Source of the DNA: a virus
Taxonomy: Duplodnaviria; Heunggongvirae; Uroviricota; Caudoviricetes
Virus record (IMG/VR): IMGVR_UViG_2703718800_000011
Length of the DNA stretch: 6,095 bases
Strand: one strand, 5' to 3'
Position numbers and translations under genes: made by a program. The notes under the pieces were generated by a model, which ran no database searches, had not been told where the DNA came from, and saw only the letters and a list, made by a program, of their open reading frames with translations. Positions 1,163-6,095 of this stretch are shown here, piece after piece. The number at the start of each line of letters is the position of its first letter. Position 1 is the first letter of the stretch.

Positions 1163-1534
1163 TTACTTCGTCTTTCCTGCCGGAACAGCAGGCGTTCCGG
1201 CCATATCAGTAAATTCATGTTGTCGCCGCGCCTCCAGACGACGAATACTGGCCTTGTCCACGTTGCAGTTCTTGATCACCGCCAGCAGTTGCAGGTTGTA
1301 AGTGACCGATGCCCCAAACGTGAACGGCTCCGGCGCAGGAGGCACCAGGCAGTCAGCCAGCCATTCAGCGGGGATCGGCACCGGCTTCACAGGCACGTAT
1401 TTCACAGACGGCCCGGCGCACCCGATCAGCCACATCATCAGGAACAGGGGCAGAGGCCGCAGGCACTGCTGCCAGCGACCGGCGGACAACGCTCTGCTGC
1501 CCCTCGCTGTGCTGAATGTTCTGTTGTTTTTCAT
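1163..1534 (-). CDS. Putative o-spanin (Rz1-like outer-membrane lipoprotein), overlapped architecture
   Basis: In a different frame from the i-spanin, beginning inside it and extending past its stop. Contains a hydrophobic stretch ending in the lipobox-like LIGC, followed by a proline-rich mature region (VPVKPVPIPAEW...VPPAPEP). Start chosen at ATG 1534 (MKNNRT...); the true start is uncertain and the whole call is weaker than the endolysin. Confidence 0.45.
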   Translation of the reverse strand: MKNNRTFSTARGSRALSAGRWQQCLRPLPLFLMMWLIGCAGPSVKYVPVKPVPIPAEWLADCLVPPAPEPFTFGASVTYNLQLLAVIKNCNVDKASIRRLEARRQHEFTDMAGTPAVPAGKTK

Positions 1535-1754
1535 TCGTGGCCGCCTCACTGATTTGTGAAATGAGTTGCAGGGTGCGTTGCTGGTTTGCCAGCACCAGAC
1601 GGGCTTCGTCCCGTTCGCGCACAAGCACATGATTATTGTCCTCAAGGCGCTGCGTCTTCTGGTGCATTCCCCATACCACGGCAGCCAGCACGCTCATCAC
1701 CCCCAGCGCCGCCATACAGCCTCCGGCAATCAGGGCCGGTAAGGGATTATTCAC
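1365..1754 (-). CDS. Putative i-spanin (Rz-like inner-membrane spanin component); start uncertain
   Basis: Hydrophobic segment LPALIAGGCMAALGVMSVLAAVVWGM followed by a long charged, coiled-coil-like region (HQKTQRLEDNNHVLVRERDEARLVLANQQRTLQLISQISEAATNEKQQ). Track ORF starts at 1886, but that overlaps the endolysin 3' end. Candidate starts: GTG 1754 (overlaps the stop of an 18-codon upstream ORF as GTGA), ATG 1715 (GGAGG 4 nt upstream, but leaves a short TMD), ATG 1865. Confidence 0.5.
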   Translation of the reverse strand: MNNPLPALIAGGCMAALGVMSVLAAVVWGMHQKTQRLEDNNHVLVRERDEARLVLANQQRTLQLISQISEAATNEKQQNIQHSEGQQSVVRRSLAAVPAASAPVPDDVADRVRRAVCEIRACEAGADPR

Positions 1755-1827
1755 CGCAGCCACAGCACACCCCGCAGCAGCACAACGGCACACAGCAGCG
1801 CAATCATGAGCGGTCGCCAGAAGCGGT

Positions 1828-2328
1828 TCAGACTTTCGGCAAATCGTAGCGACATAACCATTCATCCGCCGAACGGCGGGCCTCAAGACCGGGGAGTTTC
1901 ACCCCCTTCGAATAAATCCAGCGGATGTACTGCTTACAGGACGCGGGCATCTGCCCGGCATTGATCAGGCGCAGAAGCGTGGAGTTGCGGAAGTTCGTTT
2001 CACCAGCCCAGAAGATCCACGAAGCCAGCGCCACCGTCTGACCACGGGTAAGCGGCACCTGAACACGCCGATCAATGGCCGCAAAGGCCCATTTCATGTC
2101 CTTTTCCAGTAGTTCCAGGCATTCTTCATCCGTCAGGGTCATACCCGGTTTCACATCCGGGCCGGTATGGCCGTAACAGATGGTTGGTGTACCGGTGGGA
2201 TCGATATACGTGGAGTTTTCTTTCCCTTCCCAGTAACCGGTGTAATGCGTGGTAATGGTGAACGTCCCGGCACCGGCCATAACAAGGGCAATCAGCTTTT
2301 TACGCAGTGGTGCGGGGAGTTTTGGCAT
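1828..2328 (-). CDS. SAR (signal-anchor-release) endolysin, phage lysozyme family (GH24, T4/P21-type)
   Basis: 166 aa. Weakly hydrophobic Gly/Ala-rich N-terminus LIALVMAGAGTFTITT typical of SAR domains. E...D...T catalytic arrangement in WEGKENSTYIDPTGTPTICYGHTG, then the GETNFRNSTLLRLINAG and GLEARR motifs that I recall from P21 R-type lysozymes. Confidence 0.85.
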   Translation of the reverse strand: MPKLPAPLRKKLIALVMAGAGTFTITTHYTGYWEGKENSTYIDPTGTPTICYGHTGPDVKPGMTLTDEECLELLEKDMKWAFAAIDRRVQVPLTRGQTVALASWIFWAGETNFRNSTLLRLINAGQMPASCKQYIRWIYSKGVKLPGLEARRSADEWLCRYDLPKV

Positions 2329-2330
2329 TG

Positions 2331-2366
2331 TTACGCTGTCTCATGATGTTCTCTGAGTCAGCGTAA
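2331..2366. promoter_or_regulatory. 36 bp imperfect palindrome abutting the endolysin start codon
   Basis: Plus strand TTACGCTG-t-CTCA-tgatgttctc-TGAG-t-CAGCGTAA: 12 complementary bp in two blocks around a 10 nt centre. It lies in the 71 bp gap between the Mor/C-like stop (2400) and the endolysin ATG (2328). Could be an operator for a dimeric regulator or an mRNA hairpin covering the endolysin ribosome-binding region. Confidence 0.3.
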
Positions 2367-2399
2367 CGGTGAAGGAAAGGCGGCAGGCTTTGCGGAATA

Positions 2400-2822
2400 T
2401 CAGAAAAGTGGCGGTTGCGTTCTTGCCAGATGCAGACGGCGCTGTTCGCGTATGACGGTATAAATCTGGGTTTCTGACATCCTGTAATGGCGGCGCAGGG
2501 TTTCAATTTTTTCGCCCTGGCTCCAGCGGGAAAAAATCTCATTATTGCGCAGTTCGGTGAAAAGGGATTCACCGACCGGGAGATAATAACCACGCCCGCC
2601 CATGTACCCGGCCTGTGCGGCCGCAACTTTACGGGCAAGCATTCCTGCCTGAGCAGGTTCAATCCCCTGACGGTGCAGTTCAGCACTGATCACATCAACC
2701 AGGTCCCGCAGCGTGCCGGGCCAGTTCTTTTTCAGCTCATCATCAGGAATGTCATCCAGACGGTCAATCAGCGCGTGCAGCTGTTCGCTGTCACCAAACA
2801 TGCTCATCTGTGTTTCAGCCAT
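2400..2822 (-). CDS. Mor/C-family transcriptional activator (Mu middle/late activator homolog)
   Basis: 140 aa. N-terminal acidic region with MFGDSEQLHALIDRLDD; C-terminal GGRGYYLPVGESLFTELRNNEIFSRWSQGEKIETLRRHYRMSETQIYTVIREQRRLHLARTQPPLF matches my recollection of the Mor family (GG..YIP, RN..I...F.G, HTH, and the Mu Mor C-terminus ...RRMRRLKYRQYQPSLL). GGAGG SD 5 nt upstream of ATG 2822; located immediately upstream of the endolysin. Confidence 0.75.
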   Translation of the reverse strand: MAETQMSMFGDSEQLHALIDRLDDIPDDELKKNWPGTLRDLVDVISAELHRQGIEPAQAGMLARKVAAAQAGYMGGRGYYLPVGESLFTELRNNEIFSRWSQGEKIETLRRHYRMSETQIYTVIREQRRLHLARTQPPLF

Positions 2823-2854
2823 ACCCGCCTCCGGTCATCATTACACAGGGCAAG

Positions 2855-2888
2855 TTTAAAATAAAAATCCCGCGCTGTGGCGGGATTT
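2855..2888 (-). terminator. Intrinsic terminator hairpin, copy 1 (strong for minus-strand transcripts)
   Basis: AAATCCCGC-gctgtg-GCGGGATTT at 2865..2888: perfect 9 bp stem, 6 nt loop. On the minus-strand RNA the stem is followed by UUUUUAUUUU. Sits 43 nt upstream of the Mor/C-like ATG. Confidence 0.6.
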
Positions 2889-2930
2889 AGAGGCGCTGTA
2901 AATCATAACCCGAAATGAGCTGTGTATTTA

Positions 2931-2959
2931 TTGATCATTTTCCGGTGTAACTATATGAT
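2931..2959 (+). promoter_or_regulatory. Candidate sigma70-type promoter for the plus-strand cargo gene
   Basis: TTGATC (2931..2936), 17 nt spacer, TATGAT (2954..2959) on the plus strand in an AT-rich tract, about 200 nt upstream of ATG 3163. Pattern match only. Confidence 0.3.
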
Positions 2960-3162
2960 AAAGATCGTTTTTATTTTTAAAAATACAAACCCTGAAGGAG
3001 TTTTTCTTATCAAAAAGCTTGTGCATATTGCGGGTTATTGTTGTTTCATCAACATGAAAACCAATTATCCCAACTCTTAAAGCACACCAGGCTTGCTCCA
3101 GTGCAAAAACAAATAATTTCAGTCTGCCTGACAGCGTTCCACCGGAATAAAGGAAGATATCC

Positions 3163-3585
3163 ATGAAACAACCTCCATCTTTGCTTTTATCGTGCCCACC
3201 AGAACTGGCCCATGAACTCAATGATCTGGCGAAAGAGTATAAACTTACAAATCATAATATAGAAGCAGCAACACTTAGTGCTGCCGGAAGCGATATTGTA
3301 TTGATCGTTCTGGCCGCAGCTTCATGCGATGGGTTCTGGCAGGCATTAGCCAGTATGTTTCAGACGTGGTTACATCGTAAACCAACAAAACAAACACCCC
3401 CGGAAAAGAAAGTTATTCGTAGCGTCATTGTTCGTAGCTGGGAACACTATCAGGAGACAACTAAACAAACTGAATTTTATAACTTTGATGCTGATGAGCT
3501 GGCTAAATTGATAGCGTTATATGAAAAACCAGATGAAACAATTGGTTGCATAATCCCGTCAGAAACGGAAATTCAGGAAAAATAA
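3163..3585 (+). CDS. Hypothetical protein encoded by an opposite-strand, AT-rich moron cassette; one predicted hydrophobic helix; family not recognised
   Basis: 140 aa. The only convincing plus-strand ORF in the window. ATG 3163 is preceded by AAGGAAG with a 6 nt spacer. Stop TAA (3583..3585) runs directly into terminator copy 2. Composition is visibly more AT-rich than the flanking phage genes. Hydrophobic segment SDIVLIVLAAASCDGFWQALASMF; C-terminal half charged and acidic. Confidence 0.6.
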   Translation: MKQPPSLLLSCPPELAHELNDLAKEYKLTNHNIEAATLSAAGSDIVLIVLAAASCDGFWQALASMFQTWLHRKPTKQTPPEKKVIRSVIVRSWEHYQETTKQTEFYNFDADELAKLIALYEKPDETIGCIIPSETEIQEK

Positions 3586-3608
3586 AATCCCGCACTGTGG
3601 CGGGATTT
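3575..3608 (-). terminator. Intrinsic terminator hairpin, copy 2 (terminates the minus-strand early operon after the GemA-like gene; also follows the plus-strand cargo gene)
   Basis: AAATCCCGC-actgtg-GCGGGATTT at 3585..3608: 9 bp stem, 6 nt loop. On the minus-strand RNA it is followed by UUUUAUUUUU. Begins 4 nt after the GemA-like stop (3612). Near-identical to copy 1 over about 31 bp. Confidence 0.65.
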
Positions 3609-3611
3609 GGG

Positions 3612-4121
3612 TTAACAGGGGAATGATTTTTCATACAGCCTGCAAACGCGCTCATAACTCATCACTGCACGCTCCGACATATCCAGGGCTGCCAGCATTT
3701 TGCGGCGGTGCCAGCGTTTGAGACGCTCCAGCACATCAGAGGCCAGCTCGGGGTGTTGCTCCAGCCACTGCCAGTTAGCCACACCTTCGCCGCCGTTCTG
3801 CGCGGCCGTCTGCGATTGCACCCAGCGGTTAAGGGCCGTTTCCGCACCATCAGAAATAAAGCCCTGCCGGTGCATCACTTTCCAGATGGCGCGAATTTTG
3901 GCGGTCACCGTACCCGGCTTTAAGGCCCGGTTAACCGGTTTCTGACGCACTTTAAAACCGCGTTTTTTGAAAACATCCAGTACGCGGGATAACTCATCCG
4001 GTGACATATCCCGGCAACTGGCTTTACCGGTGGCTGCCAGCAGTGCGGATGTATAGGTTTCATCATCCAGAGCAAGCTCGCGTTTTGCCACATGAATGGC
4101 AGATATCAGTTTTCCTCTCAT
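3612..4121 (-). CDS. GemA-like protein (Mu gp16 family, DUF1018-type)
   Basis: 169 aa. N-terminus MRGKLISAIHVAKRELALDDETYTSALLAATGKASCRDMSPDELSRVLDVFKKRGF fits my recollection of the gp16/GemA signature (LI..IH.AK..L.LDD..YR.LL...TGK.S..DM...EL..VL). Start overlaps the upstream stop as ATGA. Confidence 0.7.
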   Translation of the reverse strand: MRGKLISAIHVAKRELALDDETYTSALLAATGKASCRDMSPDELSRVLDVFKKRGFKVRQKPVNRALKPGTVTAKIRAIWKVMHRQGFISDGAETALNRWVQSQTAAQNGGEGVANWQWLEQHPELASDVLERLKRWHRRKMLAALDMSERAVMSYERVCRLYEKSFPC

Positions 4122-4429
4122 ACCGTATTTACCTTTTTACGGACATGGAAAGCCTTTTCTGGCTCATTCCACCGGATATGATGCGTTGGCGGAATAATCA
4201 TTATGTGCCAGCCATCTCTGGTTGTTATTCGGCAGAAAAACTCACCGCTGTATAACACAATGGCCTGCTGAATAAGCGCATCCGCAGCCAGCTCAAGCAG
4301 ATATCTTTTATCAAAAAGGCTGATAATTTTCCGGCATAACCACCGGGTGATAACAAATGCGCCGAAAAACGATGTGATATATAAACACCAGAACAGCAGA
4401 GAAATATTGTCCGTTATTTGCTCATCCAT
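4118..4429 (-). CDS. Small membrane protein, unknown function
   Basis: 103 aa with one clear transmembrane segment ISLLFWCLYITSFFGAFVITRWLC. GGGAGA SD 6 nt upstream of ATG 4429. Sequence looks more AT-rich than its neighbours. Translationally coupled at both ends. Confidence 0.55.
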   Translation of the reverse strand: MDEQITDNISLLFWCLYITSFFGAFVITRWLCRKIISLFDKRYLLELAADALIQQAIVLYSGEFFCRITTRDGWHIMIIPPTHHIRWNEPEKAFHVRKKVNTV

Positions 4430-4754
4430 TGTGTATCTCCCGTAATTCCGGTAAAGCCGAAATATGGCACCAGTGCGTCACCTGTCCATCCTCATCTTCA
4501 AGGCAGGCTCCGGTTTCTTCATCAACAAAAAAACCTTCATACCCGATATGGCCGATGCGCAGCTCCTGTCGGTGACCGTACTGAACAATCAGTACAACAG
4601 CCTCCATATCAGGCGGGAAAGCATCATTCAGTGAATGCCAGGGATAACCGCGCAAATCCCCGAAATAAACCCCGGTCAGGGTTCCGCCACAGACCGGCAT
4701 CCCGGCGGCACATACCAGAGGTTCGTCTGATTCAACAAATAAGGTCGTTATCAT
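4422..4754 (-). CDS. Hypothetical acidic protein, unknown function
   Basis: 110 aa (MITTLFVESDEPLVCAAGMPVCGG...FVDEETGACLEDEDGQVTHWCH...). GGGAG SD 8 nt upstream of ATG 4754. ATGA overlap with the upstream gene and 8 nt overlap with the downstream one. Confidence 0.5.
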   Translation of the reverse strand: MITTLFVESDEPLVCAAGMPVCGGTLTGVYFGDLRGYPWHSLNDAFPPDMEAVVLIVQYGHRQELRIGHIGYEGFFVDEETGACLEDEDGQVTHWCHISALPELREIHNG

Positions 4755-5302
4755 GGCGTTAACTCCCGTAATACAGCGTCCCCGGCAGTCCGGCGATGGT
4801 GATAAATAAAATTCACCGTACTCTCGGATAATTCAAATTTCTCGCCTATTTCCCGGAAGGTAAGACGTCGTGGTGATTCAGCATCCCGTAATTCACGAAT
4901 AAGATGAACATCATCGTCAGGTATACGGGTGAAGGGCAGCAATTCTCCGTATTTTTTCATGCTTACGCCAATATATCGCGCCCGATTGTGGACAGAATCC
5001 CGGTCTCGCCCCAGATATTCTCCTATTTGCTTACCGGTCATCGTTCTGGCATTTTTTCGGATAAATTTATCTTCATCATGTTTAAATCTTGGACGTTTGC
5101 ATTTGAGCAACTCCGGGTAAGTACCGCGTAATAAAACAATCCGGTTATGTACACCCCAGAAACTTCTTTTTACCCTGACAGCAATATCCTTAACCGGGGT
5201 GGATGAATAAAGCGCAATCAGCAGCGCATCTTCTTCAGGTGTCCACGGACGGACATGAGCGGGGGCGCGACCTTTTCGCCCCATGGGTTGTAAAATCATC
5301 AT
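4751..5302 (-). CDS. Putative DNA-binding protein with repeated helix-turn-helix-like segments
   Basis: 183 aa. AGGGGGTGA SD upstream of ATG 5302. Contains WTPEEDALLIALY (SANT/Myb-like signature) plus two further HTH-like stretches, MTGKQIGEYLGRDRDSVHNRARYIGV and LTFREIGEKFELSESTVNFIYHHRR. Family not recognised. Confidence 0.55.
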   Translation of the reverse strand: MMILQPMGRKGRAPAHVRPWTPEEDALLIALYSSTPVKDIAVRVKRSFWGVHNRIVLLRGTYPELLKCKRPRFKHDEDKFIRKNARTMTGKQIGEYLGRDRDSVHNRARYIGVSMKKYGELLPFTRIPDDDVHLIRELRDAESPRRLTFREIGEKFELSESTVNFIYHHRRTAGDAVLRELTP

Positions 5303-5305
5303 ACA

Positions 5306-5536
5306 TCACCCCCTGACTCGCTTTTCAGCAGCATAAAACTCATCAGACAGAATTTCGGTCATTTTCTGATTTGCGGGTTTTACGCCGCACTCAAGGTAAA
5401 TCACATCGTCAACGCAGAACCACTTCACAGGGCCAAACATGATTGCCGAGAAATCAATACCCAGCCAGAACAACAGTGCATCGGTTCTGGCATACGTGAC
5501 GGGCGAATATTCACGCCACAGAAAGGTTTTCGCCAT
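5306..5536 (-). CDS. Hypothetical small protein
   Basis: 76 aa (MAKTFLWREYSPVTYARTDALLFWLGIDFSAIMFGPVKWFCVDDVIYLECGVKPANQKMTEILSDEFYAAEKRVRG). Stop lies 4 nt before the next start. Its 5' part overlaps the 104-aa ORF in another frame; weak SD. Confidence 0.45.
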   Translation of the reverse strand: MAKTFLWREYSPVTYARTDALLFWLGIDFSAIMFGPVKWFCVDDVIYLECGVKPANQKMTEILSDEFYAAEKRVRG

Positions 5537-5739
5537 AAGTCGCGATGAAAAGGATATTTGTCATCCATAAAGCGCAGCCCCTTAAAACAAAAGCCACTGA
5601 TACTGAATTCAAATACCGACCGGCACGCAACATTCAGCACGGCCTCAAGGCGTTTCGCCTCATCTTTTACCGTCTGGCAGTCCTGCTGGTATTTTTGCCA
5701 CGCAGCCAGCGCGGCAGGGTTTGATGTTTTAAAGAACAT
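5425..5739 (-). CDS. Hypothetical small protein; 3' extent doubtful
   Basis: 104 aa ORF whose ATG overlaps the upstream stop as TAATG. The N-terminal part (MFFKTSNPAALAAWQKYQQDCQTVKDEAKRLEAVLNVA) looks protein-like; the C-terminal part is Cys/Trp-rich and overlaps the 76-aa ORF, so the real gene may be shorter or frameshifted. Confidence 0.3.
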   Translation of the reverse strand: MFFKTSNPAALAAWQKYQQDCQTVKDEAKRLEAVLNVACRSVFEFSISGFCFKGLRFMDDKYPFHRDLWRKPFCGVNIRPSRMPEPMHCCSGWVLISRQSCLAL

Positions 5740-6095
5740 TACTCTACCTCCGCAGAAATCGCGGCAGGCGCAGCCGTCCGGTCAACAATCAGGTAACGCA
5801 GAACATGTTCGGTGATATTCCAGCCGCTTAAACCGCAGATAATGACGCCCAGGCGAATGTCGATATACGCCATCACAAACTGGGGCACGCCTTCTTTCAT
5901 GGCCTGCTCATCAACTTCAGCCACCACATAAACGGTTTCACAGGTCAGAACGCCCTGAGCAAATTCCCACGCCATCGACGGAATATCATGCCCCTCAATC
6001 CACGGCAGGGATTTTCTGAAGCTGCACCACTGAACATCATCAGCCGCACCTTCCTGGCTGCATTTGCGACGAACCGGCTGCACCGGGCGGGGACG
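5739..6095 (-). CDS. Hypothetical early-region protein; N-terminus probably beyond the window end
   Basis: Frame is open from the window edge (6095) to the stop at 5739. The track's start at 6083 is a GTG, and the first in-frame ATG is further in (MAWEFAQGVLTCETVYVVAEVDEQAMKEGVPQFVMAYIDIRLGVIICGLSGW...), so the true start is unresolved. No family recognised. Confidence 0.45.
   Translation of the reverse strand, partial: RPRPVQPVRRKCSQEGAADDVQWCSFRKSLPWIEGHDIPSMAWEFAQGVLTCETVYVVAEVDEQAMKEGVPQFVMAYIDIRLGVIICGLSGWNITEHVLRYLIVDRTAAPAAISAEVE

Follow-up and report, generated by a model that had tools for sequence, protein, structure and literature searches.

The window analysed here is a 6,095-nucleotide (nt) stretch of DNA from a virus of the class Caudoviricetes (IMG/VR record IMGVR_UViG_2703718800_000011), and our subject is the block at 2889–3584, which separates a gemA-like gene from a mor-like gene. 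Judged from sequence comparison, this block most likely carries two head-to-head genes rather than one: a plus-strand open reading frame (ORF) of 140 amino acids (aa), referred to below as the cargo gene, and a small minus-strand ORF that occupies the presumed leader of the cargo transcript. The version of the module found in the window is designated type A; a second type, B, and its variants B2 and B3 are found in other strains. The features of the locus are as follows.

3163–3585, plus strand: cargo gene, encoding an acidic (pI 5.2) ORFan protein of 140 aa.
2928–3164, minus strand: small ORF, 78 aa, basic (pI 8.7), with a hydrophobic core; RefSeq WP_024192020.1, called by the Prokaryotic Genome Annotation Pipeline (PGAP).
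3172–3176, minus strand: Shine-Dalgarno sequence GGAGG of the small ORF (plus-strand CCTCC), 7 nt upstream of the start in type A.
3150–3156, plus strand: Shine-Dalgarno sequence AAGGAAG of the 140-aa ORF, 6 nt before the ATG, its AGGA core conserved across five copies.
2931–2959, plus strand: predicted sigma-70-type promoter, TTGATC (2931–2936), 17-nt spacer, TATGAT (2954–2959), from consensus match and conservation.
2960–3162, plus strand: putative 5′ untranslated region (UTR) of the plus-strand mRNA, ∼200 nt, placed from the positions of promoter and ATG and fully antisense to the small ORF.
2865–2888, minus strand: left hairpin copy, AAATCCCGC-6-GCGGGATTT, T-run on the minus strand; the mor ribosome-binding site follows immediately.
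3585–3608, minus strand: right hairpin copy, differing from the left in one loop base (G to A) and placed 3 nt beyond the gemA stop.
2400–2822, minus strand: core gene for a Mor-family activator of late or middle transcription (Pfam Mor, 1e-30; phrog_532, 6.9e-45).
3612–4121, minus strand: core gene for a GemA / gp16 family protein (Pfam GemA, 1.3e-29; phrog_286, 1.2e-54).
1828–2328, minus strand: lysozyme gene.

A preliminary description, made from the letters of the window alone, had presented the block as an AT-rich insert between GemA-like and Mor-like genes, running against an otherwise minus-strand set of phage genes and equipped with a promoter-like element, a good Shine-Dalgarno sequence and a 140-aa ORF. 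Each of these elements is borne out. The flanking genes are recognised by the profile matches given above and the phage genes of the window lie on the minus strand throughout. Windowed GC shows the composition of the block to be atypical (39.2% GC for 2889–3584 against 54.0% for the remainder of the window, with a lowest 300-nt window of 36.7%); the early genes at 4118–5302 are also somewhat GC-poor (43–51%), and the block is thus extreme rather than unique. An ORF as long as that of the cargo gene arises by chance in 0.8% of random sequences of block composition (P = 0.008). The promoter is present as described: although a lone match to the pattern is at chance level (two found in comparison with 2.4 expected), the hexamers, their spacing and the bases next to them are invariant in five of five diverged module copies, in which the surrounding DNA cannot be aligned between types, and 34 of the 44 positions of the promoter block are identical between types A and B2.

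Two GATC (Dam) sites fall in this promoter region, one within the −35 hexamer (2933–2936) and one at the predicted transcription start (2963–2966); the former is retained unchanged in each of the five module copies, the latter in four of them. Methylation-sensitive expression is known for some transposon and phage promoters, and the two sites suggest that expression of the module may be sensitive in the same way. Rfam returned sub-threshold chance matches only, and the putative leader has an unremarkable fold (z = −1.08); a riboswitch or small RNA within it was considered and for that reason rejected.

That the leader is more than a leader is indicated by the opposite strand. In every copy of the module the stretch between promoter and cargo ORF is open on the minus strand, encoding 78 aa in type A and 63–64 aa in types B, B2 and B3; in the window this ORF fills the whole of the putative 5′ UTR. 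The start codons of the two ORFs overlap by 2 nt in type A (CATG) and abut in type B (CATATG), and this abutment or overlap is kept in every module variant. Between B2 and B3 the small ORF has accumulated 20.5 synonymous and 8.5 non-synonymous differences, giving a ratio of non-synonymous to synonymous rates (dN/dS) of 0.07; the value for B versus B2 is 0.12. Of the other five frames of the type B stretch four contain stop codons, with ratios from ∼0.7 to 3.5; the mirror antisense frame gives lowish values (0.23–0.51), yet it contains stops. As judged by these patterns of substitution, the small ORF of type B modules is a real gene under purifying selection. The cargo ORF shows a comparable signature in the type B comparison (dN/dS 0.16).

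These data bear directly on the earlier view of the block as single-gene cargo, which they do not support: the presumed leader coincides with another ORF, read from the phage strand, that PGAP calls in the window's type and that in type B is clearly selected as a coding sequence. For the window itself the case consists of the position of the ORF, its Shine-Dalgarno sequence, three synonymous changes against one non-synonymous change relative to the second type A copy (L012) and the annotation, and on these grounds the 78-aa ORF is probably a gene. Its product is seen on 352 contigs. The small proteins (63–78 aa) are all basic, with net charges of +1.7 in type A and +6.6 to +7.6 in type B. Their hydrophobic core is borderline for a transmembrane segment (KD19, the Kyte-Doolittle hydropathy averaged over 19 residues, is 1.53–1.88) and charged residues lie inside the hydrophobic stretch.

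The 140-aa protein is found in identical form on 524 contigs from E. coli and Shigella. It had been described as having one hydrophobic helix and an acidic C-terminal half. A hydrophobic segment does exist (residues 35–53; KD19 1.85), but the AlphaFold2 (AF2) model places a beta-strand there and the type B proteins are without such a segment; a transmembrane helix is, on this modelling, doubtful. Since the segment is a beta-strand in a low-confidence alpha/beta model and nothing in type B corresponds to it at transmembrane strength, the product is more likely to be soluble than to be a membrane protein. The C-terminal half is acidic as claimed, but mildly so (−4.1 vs −2.2). Cargo proteins are acidic in the module types, with net charges of −3 to −6. 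The N-terminal MKQPPSLLLSC was considered as a lipoprotein or signal peptide and discarded, given that its Cys comes at residue 11, that the hydrophobic region lacks the necessary length and that nothing equivalent exists in type B.

Type A and type B cargo proteins share a distant similarity (residues 27–72 of A with residues 20–67 of B; shuffle P = 0.003, hhalign E = 0.028). This similarity, combined with the common promoter block, implies that the A and B modules share ancestry and have diverged very fast. Natural variants of the 140-aa gene are also informative. One allele (P0011, 27 contigs) has a frameshift at the CCCCCGGAAAAGAAAG run and an 86-aa product; in another (L063, 212–1385) an insertion sequence (IS) of the DDE_Tnp_1 family leaves only the last 45 codons. 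The frameshift and IS alleles show that the 140-aa gene is dispensable. A third variant (P0002 / L062) carries an in-frame deletion of 25 codons, which keeps the frame and leaves 115 aa.

The module occupies a slot that is usually empty. Our survey of E. coli took in 231 complete genomes with the prophage family, of which four carry type A and two, the mouse isolates M1 and M3, carry type B; an evenly spread sample of these genomes contributed 58 other records, and in all 58 the gemA–mor span fits an empty slot. The module is missing from ∼97% of related E. coli prophages. Empty slots consist of a 70–76-nt gemA–mor spacer with a single hairpin (CV261, M18, DLI.5a, TOE17 and JKHS016), and the close relatives in IMG/VR, besides the contigs with type A or B, are all empty, two of them as judged via partial gemA matches. 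More distant Salmonella prophages carry B2 and B3 (54–61% protein identity) in the same position and orientation. In every module the cargo strand is opposite to that of gemA and mor.

Comparison of the three slot states (empty, type A and type B) reveals common junctions, with A and B each lying between two hairpin copies. An occupied site equals the empty spacer plus ∼720 bp that begin directly after the hairpin and end in a second copy of it. The left hairpin of the window is identical to the lone hairpin of empty sites, and the hairpin is found nowhere else within 41.9 kb of the prophage region. By this comparison the two hairpins are a direct duplication of the single terminator resident between gemA and mor. 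Both are stable (−13 to −15 kcal/mol; z-scores −2.5 to −3.8). The hairpin that follows the stop of the 140-aa gene, which is the right-hand copy, has only three U on the plus strand, where it is a weak terminator, and its T-run on the minus strand, where it is a strong one. Because the T-runs lie on the minus strand, the hairpins are to be seen as terminators or attenuators of phage early transcription, not as insulators dedicated to the cargo. The suggestion that the block is insulated by terminator hairpins is not supported where independent elements are meant: stable hairpins do lie on both sides, but they are copies of the phage's own terminator and face phage transcription.

If the two copies recombined with each other, the empty site would be restored precisely. 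Empty sites may be ancestral or may be deletions, and sequence comparison fits either. In the Salmonella B2 and B3 modules (L010 and L011, ∼2700–2730) the left hairpin is degenerate, with the left arm and loop remaining (AAATCCCGCGCTGTGGCGACAGA). Such degeneration would block loss of the module by recombination between copies and suggests that the module is old in the Salmonella lineage. A second opposite-strand insert, encoding a DUF2513-domain protein of ∼136 aa, lies just upstream of gemA in some relatives (L004, 2448–2858; L011, 3945–4355). No copy of the gemA–mor hairpin was found beside it in JKHS016 or L011, and a terminator scan of JKHS016 found none there; the insert looks like another accessory slot of the Sp18-type prophage family.

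The arrangement of the hairpins raises the question of whether the block acts chiefly as a regulatory insulator, in which a second terminator and an opposing promoter damp read-through into mor and so tighten lysogeny, the proteins being secondary. Both hairpins are indeed minus-strand terminators between gemA and mor, and the predicted plus-strand promoter faces early transcription. Against this, both ORFs are maintained, with purifying selection in type B, and some 97% of related prophages function without the module. We consider such an explanation very unlikely.

Evidence for exchange comes from two contrasts. Between the window and L012 the modules are 97.3% identical, whereas the flanks are 91–94% identical and the gene beyond gemA 65%; between the window and M3 gemA is 99.8% identical and the module is of a different type. 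Together these contrasts indicate that the module moves between phage backgrounds as a unit. Scans for the conserved promoter in IMG/VR, GTDB genomes and JGI metagenomes, made for further module types, returned only the known A and B modules plus chance matches in AT-rich genomes. The gemA–mor junction had been proposed as a possible variable hotspot: alternative cargo, in the form of type B, does exist in other strains, but the slot is usually empty and only two types were found in it. As far as these comparisons reach, it is a sparse and swappable slot, not a highly diverse hotspot.

An insert that lies between conserved genes and is absent from close relatives, that is atypical in composition and that has its own conserved, predicted promoter follows the moron pattern, as had been anticipated. 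On the comparative data the block is an optional, horizontally exchanged accessory module of Sp18-type Mu-like prophages in E. coli, Shigella and Salmonella.

What might such a module do? The reading that we prefer, to which we give an even chance, is that the two divergent genes are expressed in a mutually exclusive, excludon-like fashion and form an antagonistic pair in phage–host or phage–phage conflict. It builds, from sequence, on the anatomy of the block, its optional occurrence, its exchange, the coding selection in type B and the absence of a known family; the transcription pattern, the interaction of the two proteins and their biological role are what we infer. In the lysogen the 140-aa protein would be made from its own predicted sigma-70 promoter, its gene being oriented like that of the prophage repressor, and the ∼200-nt leader of its mRNA would be antisense to the small gene. 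The promoter lies beyond the 3′ part of the small ORF, and a leader that starts there must cross that ORF if the promoter is used.

Transcription of the small gene would follow another route. We found no sigma-70-like promoter upstream of the small ORF and no conserved candidate inside the 140-aa gene; read-through of the early operon, past the gemA terminator and toward mor, would then be the only source of its transcript. Such read-through must be permitted in all these phages, given that the mor ribosome-binding site comes right after the hairpin and expression of mor requires it. Once the prophage is induced, early transcripts would cross the 140-aa gene in antisense and then give the small protein just ahead of Mor. 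Two versions of the antagonism can be envisaged. In the first the 140-aa protein would serve the lysogen in exclusion or defence, and the small protein would provide self-immunity early in lytic growth; in the second the small protein would be an early toxic host-takeover protein and the 140-aa protein its lysogen-phase antidote.

A stronger form of this reading is possible but doubtful: that the module is a new type of compact prophage conflict switch, made of head-to-head ORFans with mutually antisense transcripts, one wired to lysogeny and the other to the early lytic phase, on a mobile cassette bounded by copies of a terminator. On that view the prophage would bring along both an exclusion or toxic activity and the phase-specific switch that turns it off.

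Several observations weigh against an antagonistic pair. The length of the small ORF is, taken alone, to be expected in 33% of random blocks (P = 0.33), and the small proteins of types A and B do not resemble each other significantly (P = 0.13; hhalign E = 0.05), their N-terminal likeness being partly forced by the conserved Shine-Dalgarno sequence on the other strand. The AF2 models are poor (predicted local distance difference test, pLDDT, 51.5 for type A and 44.1 for type B). Finally, natural knock-outs of the 140-aa gene are viable, so that its product cannot be an antidote indispensable against a toxin that is made constitutively.

The first two of these points would suit a simpler explanation, namely that the block is a single-gene moron in which function resides in the 140-aa protein alone (superinfection exclusion, defence and lysogenic conversion are examples) and the 78-aa ORF is a chance frame in its leader. 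Promoter, Shine-Dalgarno sequence, ORF and hairpin match the moron pattern. A chance frame is difficult to reconcile with a type B equivalent that is clearly coding (dN/dS 0.07–0.12) and with an overlap of start codons that is retained in all variants; and the type A frame itself has a strong GGAGG, the 3:1 excess of synonymous changes and a PGAP annotation. We judge a single functional gene to be unlikely.

The viability of the knock-outs bears instead on a sub-case of the antagonistic pair, a toxin–antitoxin-like lock. Here the small basic protein would be an early-lytic toxin directed at membranes or nucleic acids, silenced in the lysogen by the complementary leader (type I-like), by the acidic protein (type II-like) or by both. 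The small proteins have a positive net charge, a hydrophobic core (KD19 1.5–1.9) and an acidic partner, the leader is wholly antisense to the small ORF, and both partners diverge together between types A and B. However, proteins of 63–78 aa with charges inside the hydrophobic stretch are atypical of type I toxins, no toxin–antitoxin or defence model is matched, and strains survive when a frameshift or an IS disrupts the 140-aa gene, the knock-out alleles being an argument against a strict addiction module. A lock of this kind seems to us unlikely.

An antagonistic pair, in the general form given above, remains our preferred reading, and neither partner matches a known family. That the 140-aa protein matches no recognised family had been proposed from its sequence, and this can now be extended to both proteins of all module types: Pfam, PHROGs, NCBIfam, PADLOC and the sequences of the PDB gave nothing significant, the best profile and sequence matches being sub-threshold (E ≥ 0.02). 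In PADLOC-DB 2.0 neither protein of types A, B, B2 or B3 had a match at E ≤ 1. When the cargo proteins of types A and B and a type B profile were used in word-indexed searches, only close relatives from E. coli and Salmonella came up; GenBank phages and PLSDB plasmids yielded no tblastn match.

The 140-aa protein was also compared with 1.84 billion cluster representatives in an exhaustive HMMER search, which returned fragments of the query protein itself and one non-self match (P0007; E = 1.2e-6). The latter is a eukaryote-type mucin with nine SEA repeats, seven of which are near-identical and give the same weak match (29 bits, 25% identity); we rejected it as an additive artefact. Foldseek searches against the PDB and BFVD gave no match at E < 0.1, and the weak ferredoxin-like or ACT-like structures at the top are uninterpretable because the models are too poor. 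Both proteins are already present in public databases as "hypothetical protein". Our literature search found no description of the gemA–mor slot or of either protein.

The prophage background of the window is well defined. Over positions 2300–4200 the window agrees at 100% identity with the E. coli STEC2018-607 chromosome (NZ_CP075697.1), and in full it matches that chromosome except for four substitutions and an 82-nt deletion near 5523. In STEC2018-607 the region is part of a complete Mu-like prophage transposed into bcsA, with genes in the order repressor, ner, transposase A and B and gam, leading to gemA, mor and the lysis genes and then to the head and tail genes. The deletion, at 5522–5525, leaves 2 nt in place of 84 and splits a 171-aa Gp12-like early gene (5306–5821 equivalent) into two shorter ORFs in different frames. 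With the Gp12-like gene broken, the early region of the window's prophage copy is partly decayed.

Several other features of the prophage deserve mention. Downstream of the lysozyme gene (window 1163–1886) lies an Rz-like ORF with an Rz1-like lipoprotein gene embedded out of frame (lysC in relatives). A TraR/DksA zinc-finger gene at 926–1153 comes after these Rz/Rz1-like genes, which is the usual arrangement for the phage group. Outside the window, a 'tRNA-OTHER' is annotated in RefSeq between the genes for virion morphogenesis and head morphogenesis, on the strand that the head genes do not use (NZ_CP075697.1, locus L001, 12818–12905). The interrupted bcsA is annotated at L001 30958–32061 as a PilZ-domain pseudogene without its N-terminus, with bcsB, bcsZ and bcsC directly after it; the STEC2018-607 lysogen is probably cellulose-negative.

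Carriers of the module include Shiga-toxin-producing E. coli (STEC) and Shigella sonnei, and type B is found on more than 1000 Salmonella contigs. Carriage in these organisms would make any effect on phage susceptibility or prophage induction practically relevant. If the two genes are an antagonistic pair, the module would be a very small, easily cloned prophage case in which an accessory activity is coupled to life-cycle phase by gene geometry, and would add two new protein families to the repertoire of phage conflict. Should there prove to be no phenotype, it would be an ordinary ORFan moron, with the caution that what looks like a long leader in an insert of this sort may conceal a further gene. 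None of our data upset what is expected of prophage accessory genes. The layout, head-to-head and mutually antisense, is unusual, compact and directly testable.

Morons (Juhala et al. 2000; Cumby et al. 2012) are promoter–gene–terminator units inserted between the core genes of temperate phages. The block described here resembles them in being an optional insert between conserved genes, with lower GC, its own predicted sigma-70 promoter, a 3′ hairpin and an orientation opposite to that of the lytic operon. It differs in that it most likely holds two divergent genes with overlapping start codons, and in that its terminators are duplicates of the resident phage terminator, facing phage transcription rather than serving the cargo.

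A second comparison is with loci where antisense RNA decides between antagonistic products or silences a small hydrophobic protein, as in sieB/esc of P22 with its sas antisense RNA and in type I loci such as hok/sok and tisB/istR. The family searches described above gave no match for the module proteins, and the small one exceeds typical type I toxins in length and in charge.

Closer in layout is the excludon, in which divergent neighbours with overlapping transcripts achieve mutually exclusive expression via transcriptional interference and cleavage by RNase III (PMC12288877). The module is similar in that its long 5′ leader, judged from the position of the promoter, would be fully antisense to the divergent neighbour. 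It differs in that the second transcript apparently comes from read-through of the operon, without a dedicated promoter. To our knowledge no excludon has been reported from a comparable accessory module of a phage.

A further parallel is provided by the transposable Pseudomonas phage Fc02, where a forward-strand gene expressed in lysogeny overlaps a reverse-strand gene of the early operon and both give superinfection exclusion (PMC9936078). We saw no sequence similarity between Fc02 and the module proteins. The likeness of olg1/olg2 and gene 10 to the present pair is one of design: a Mu-like phage with a lysogeny gene and an early lytic gene on opposite strands. In Fc02, however, the coding regions overlap extensively and lie beside repressor/ner, whereas in the module the two ORFs abut head-to-head between gemA and mor.

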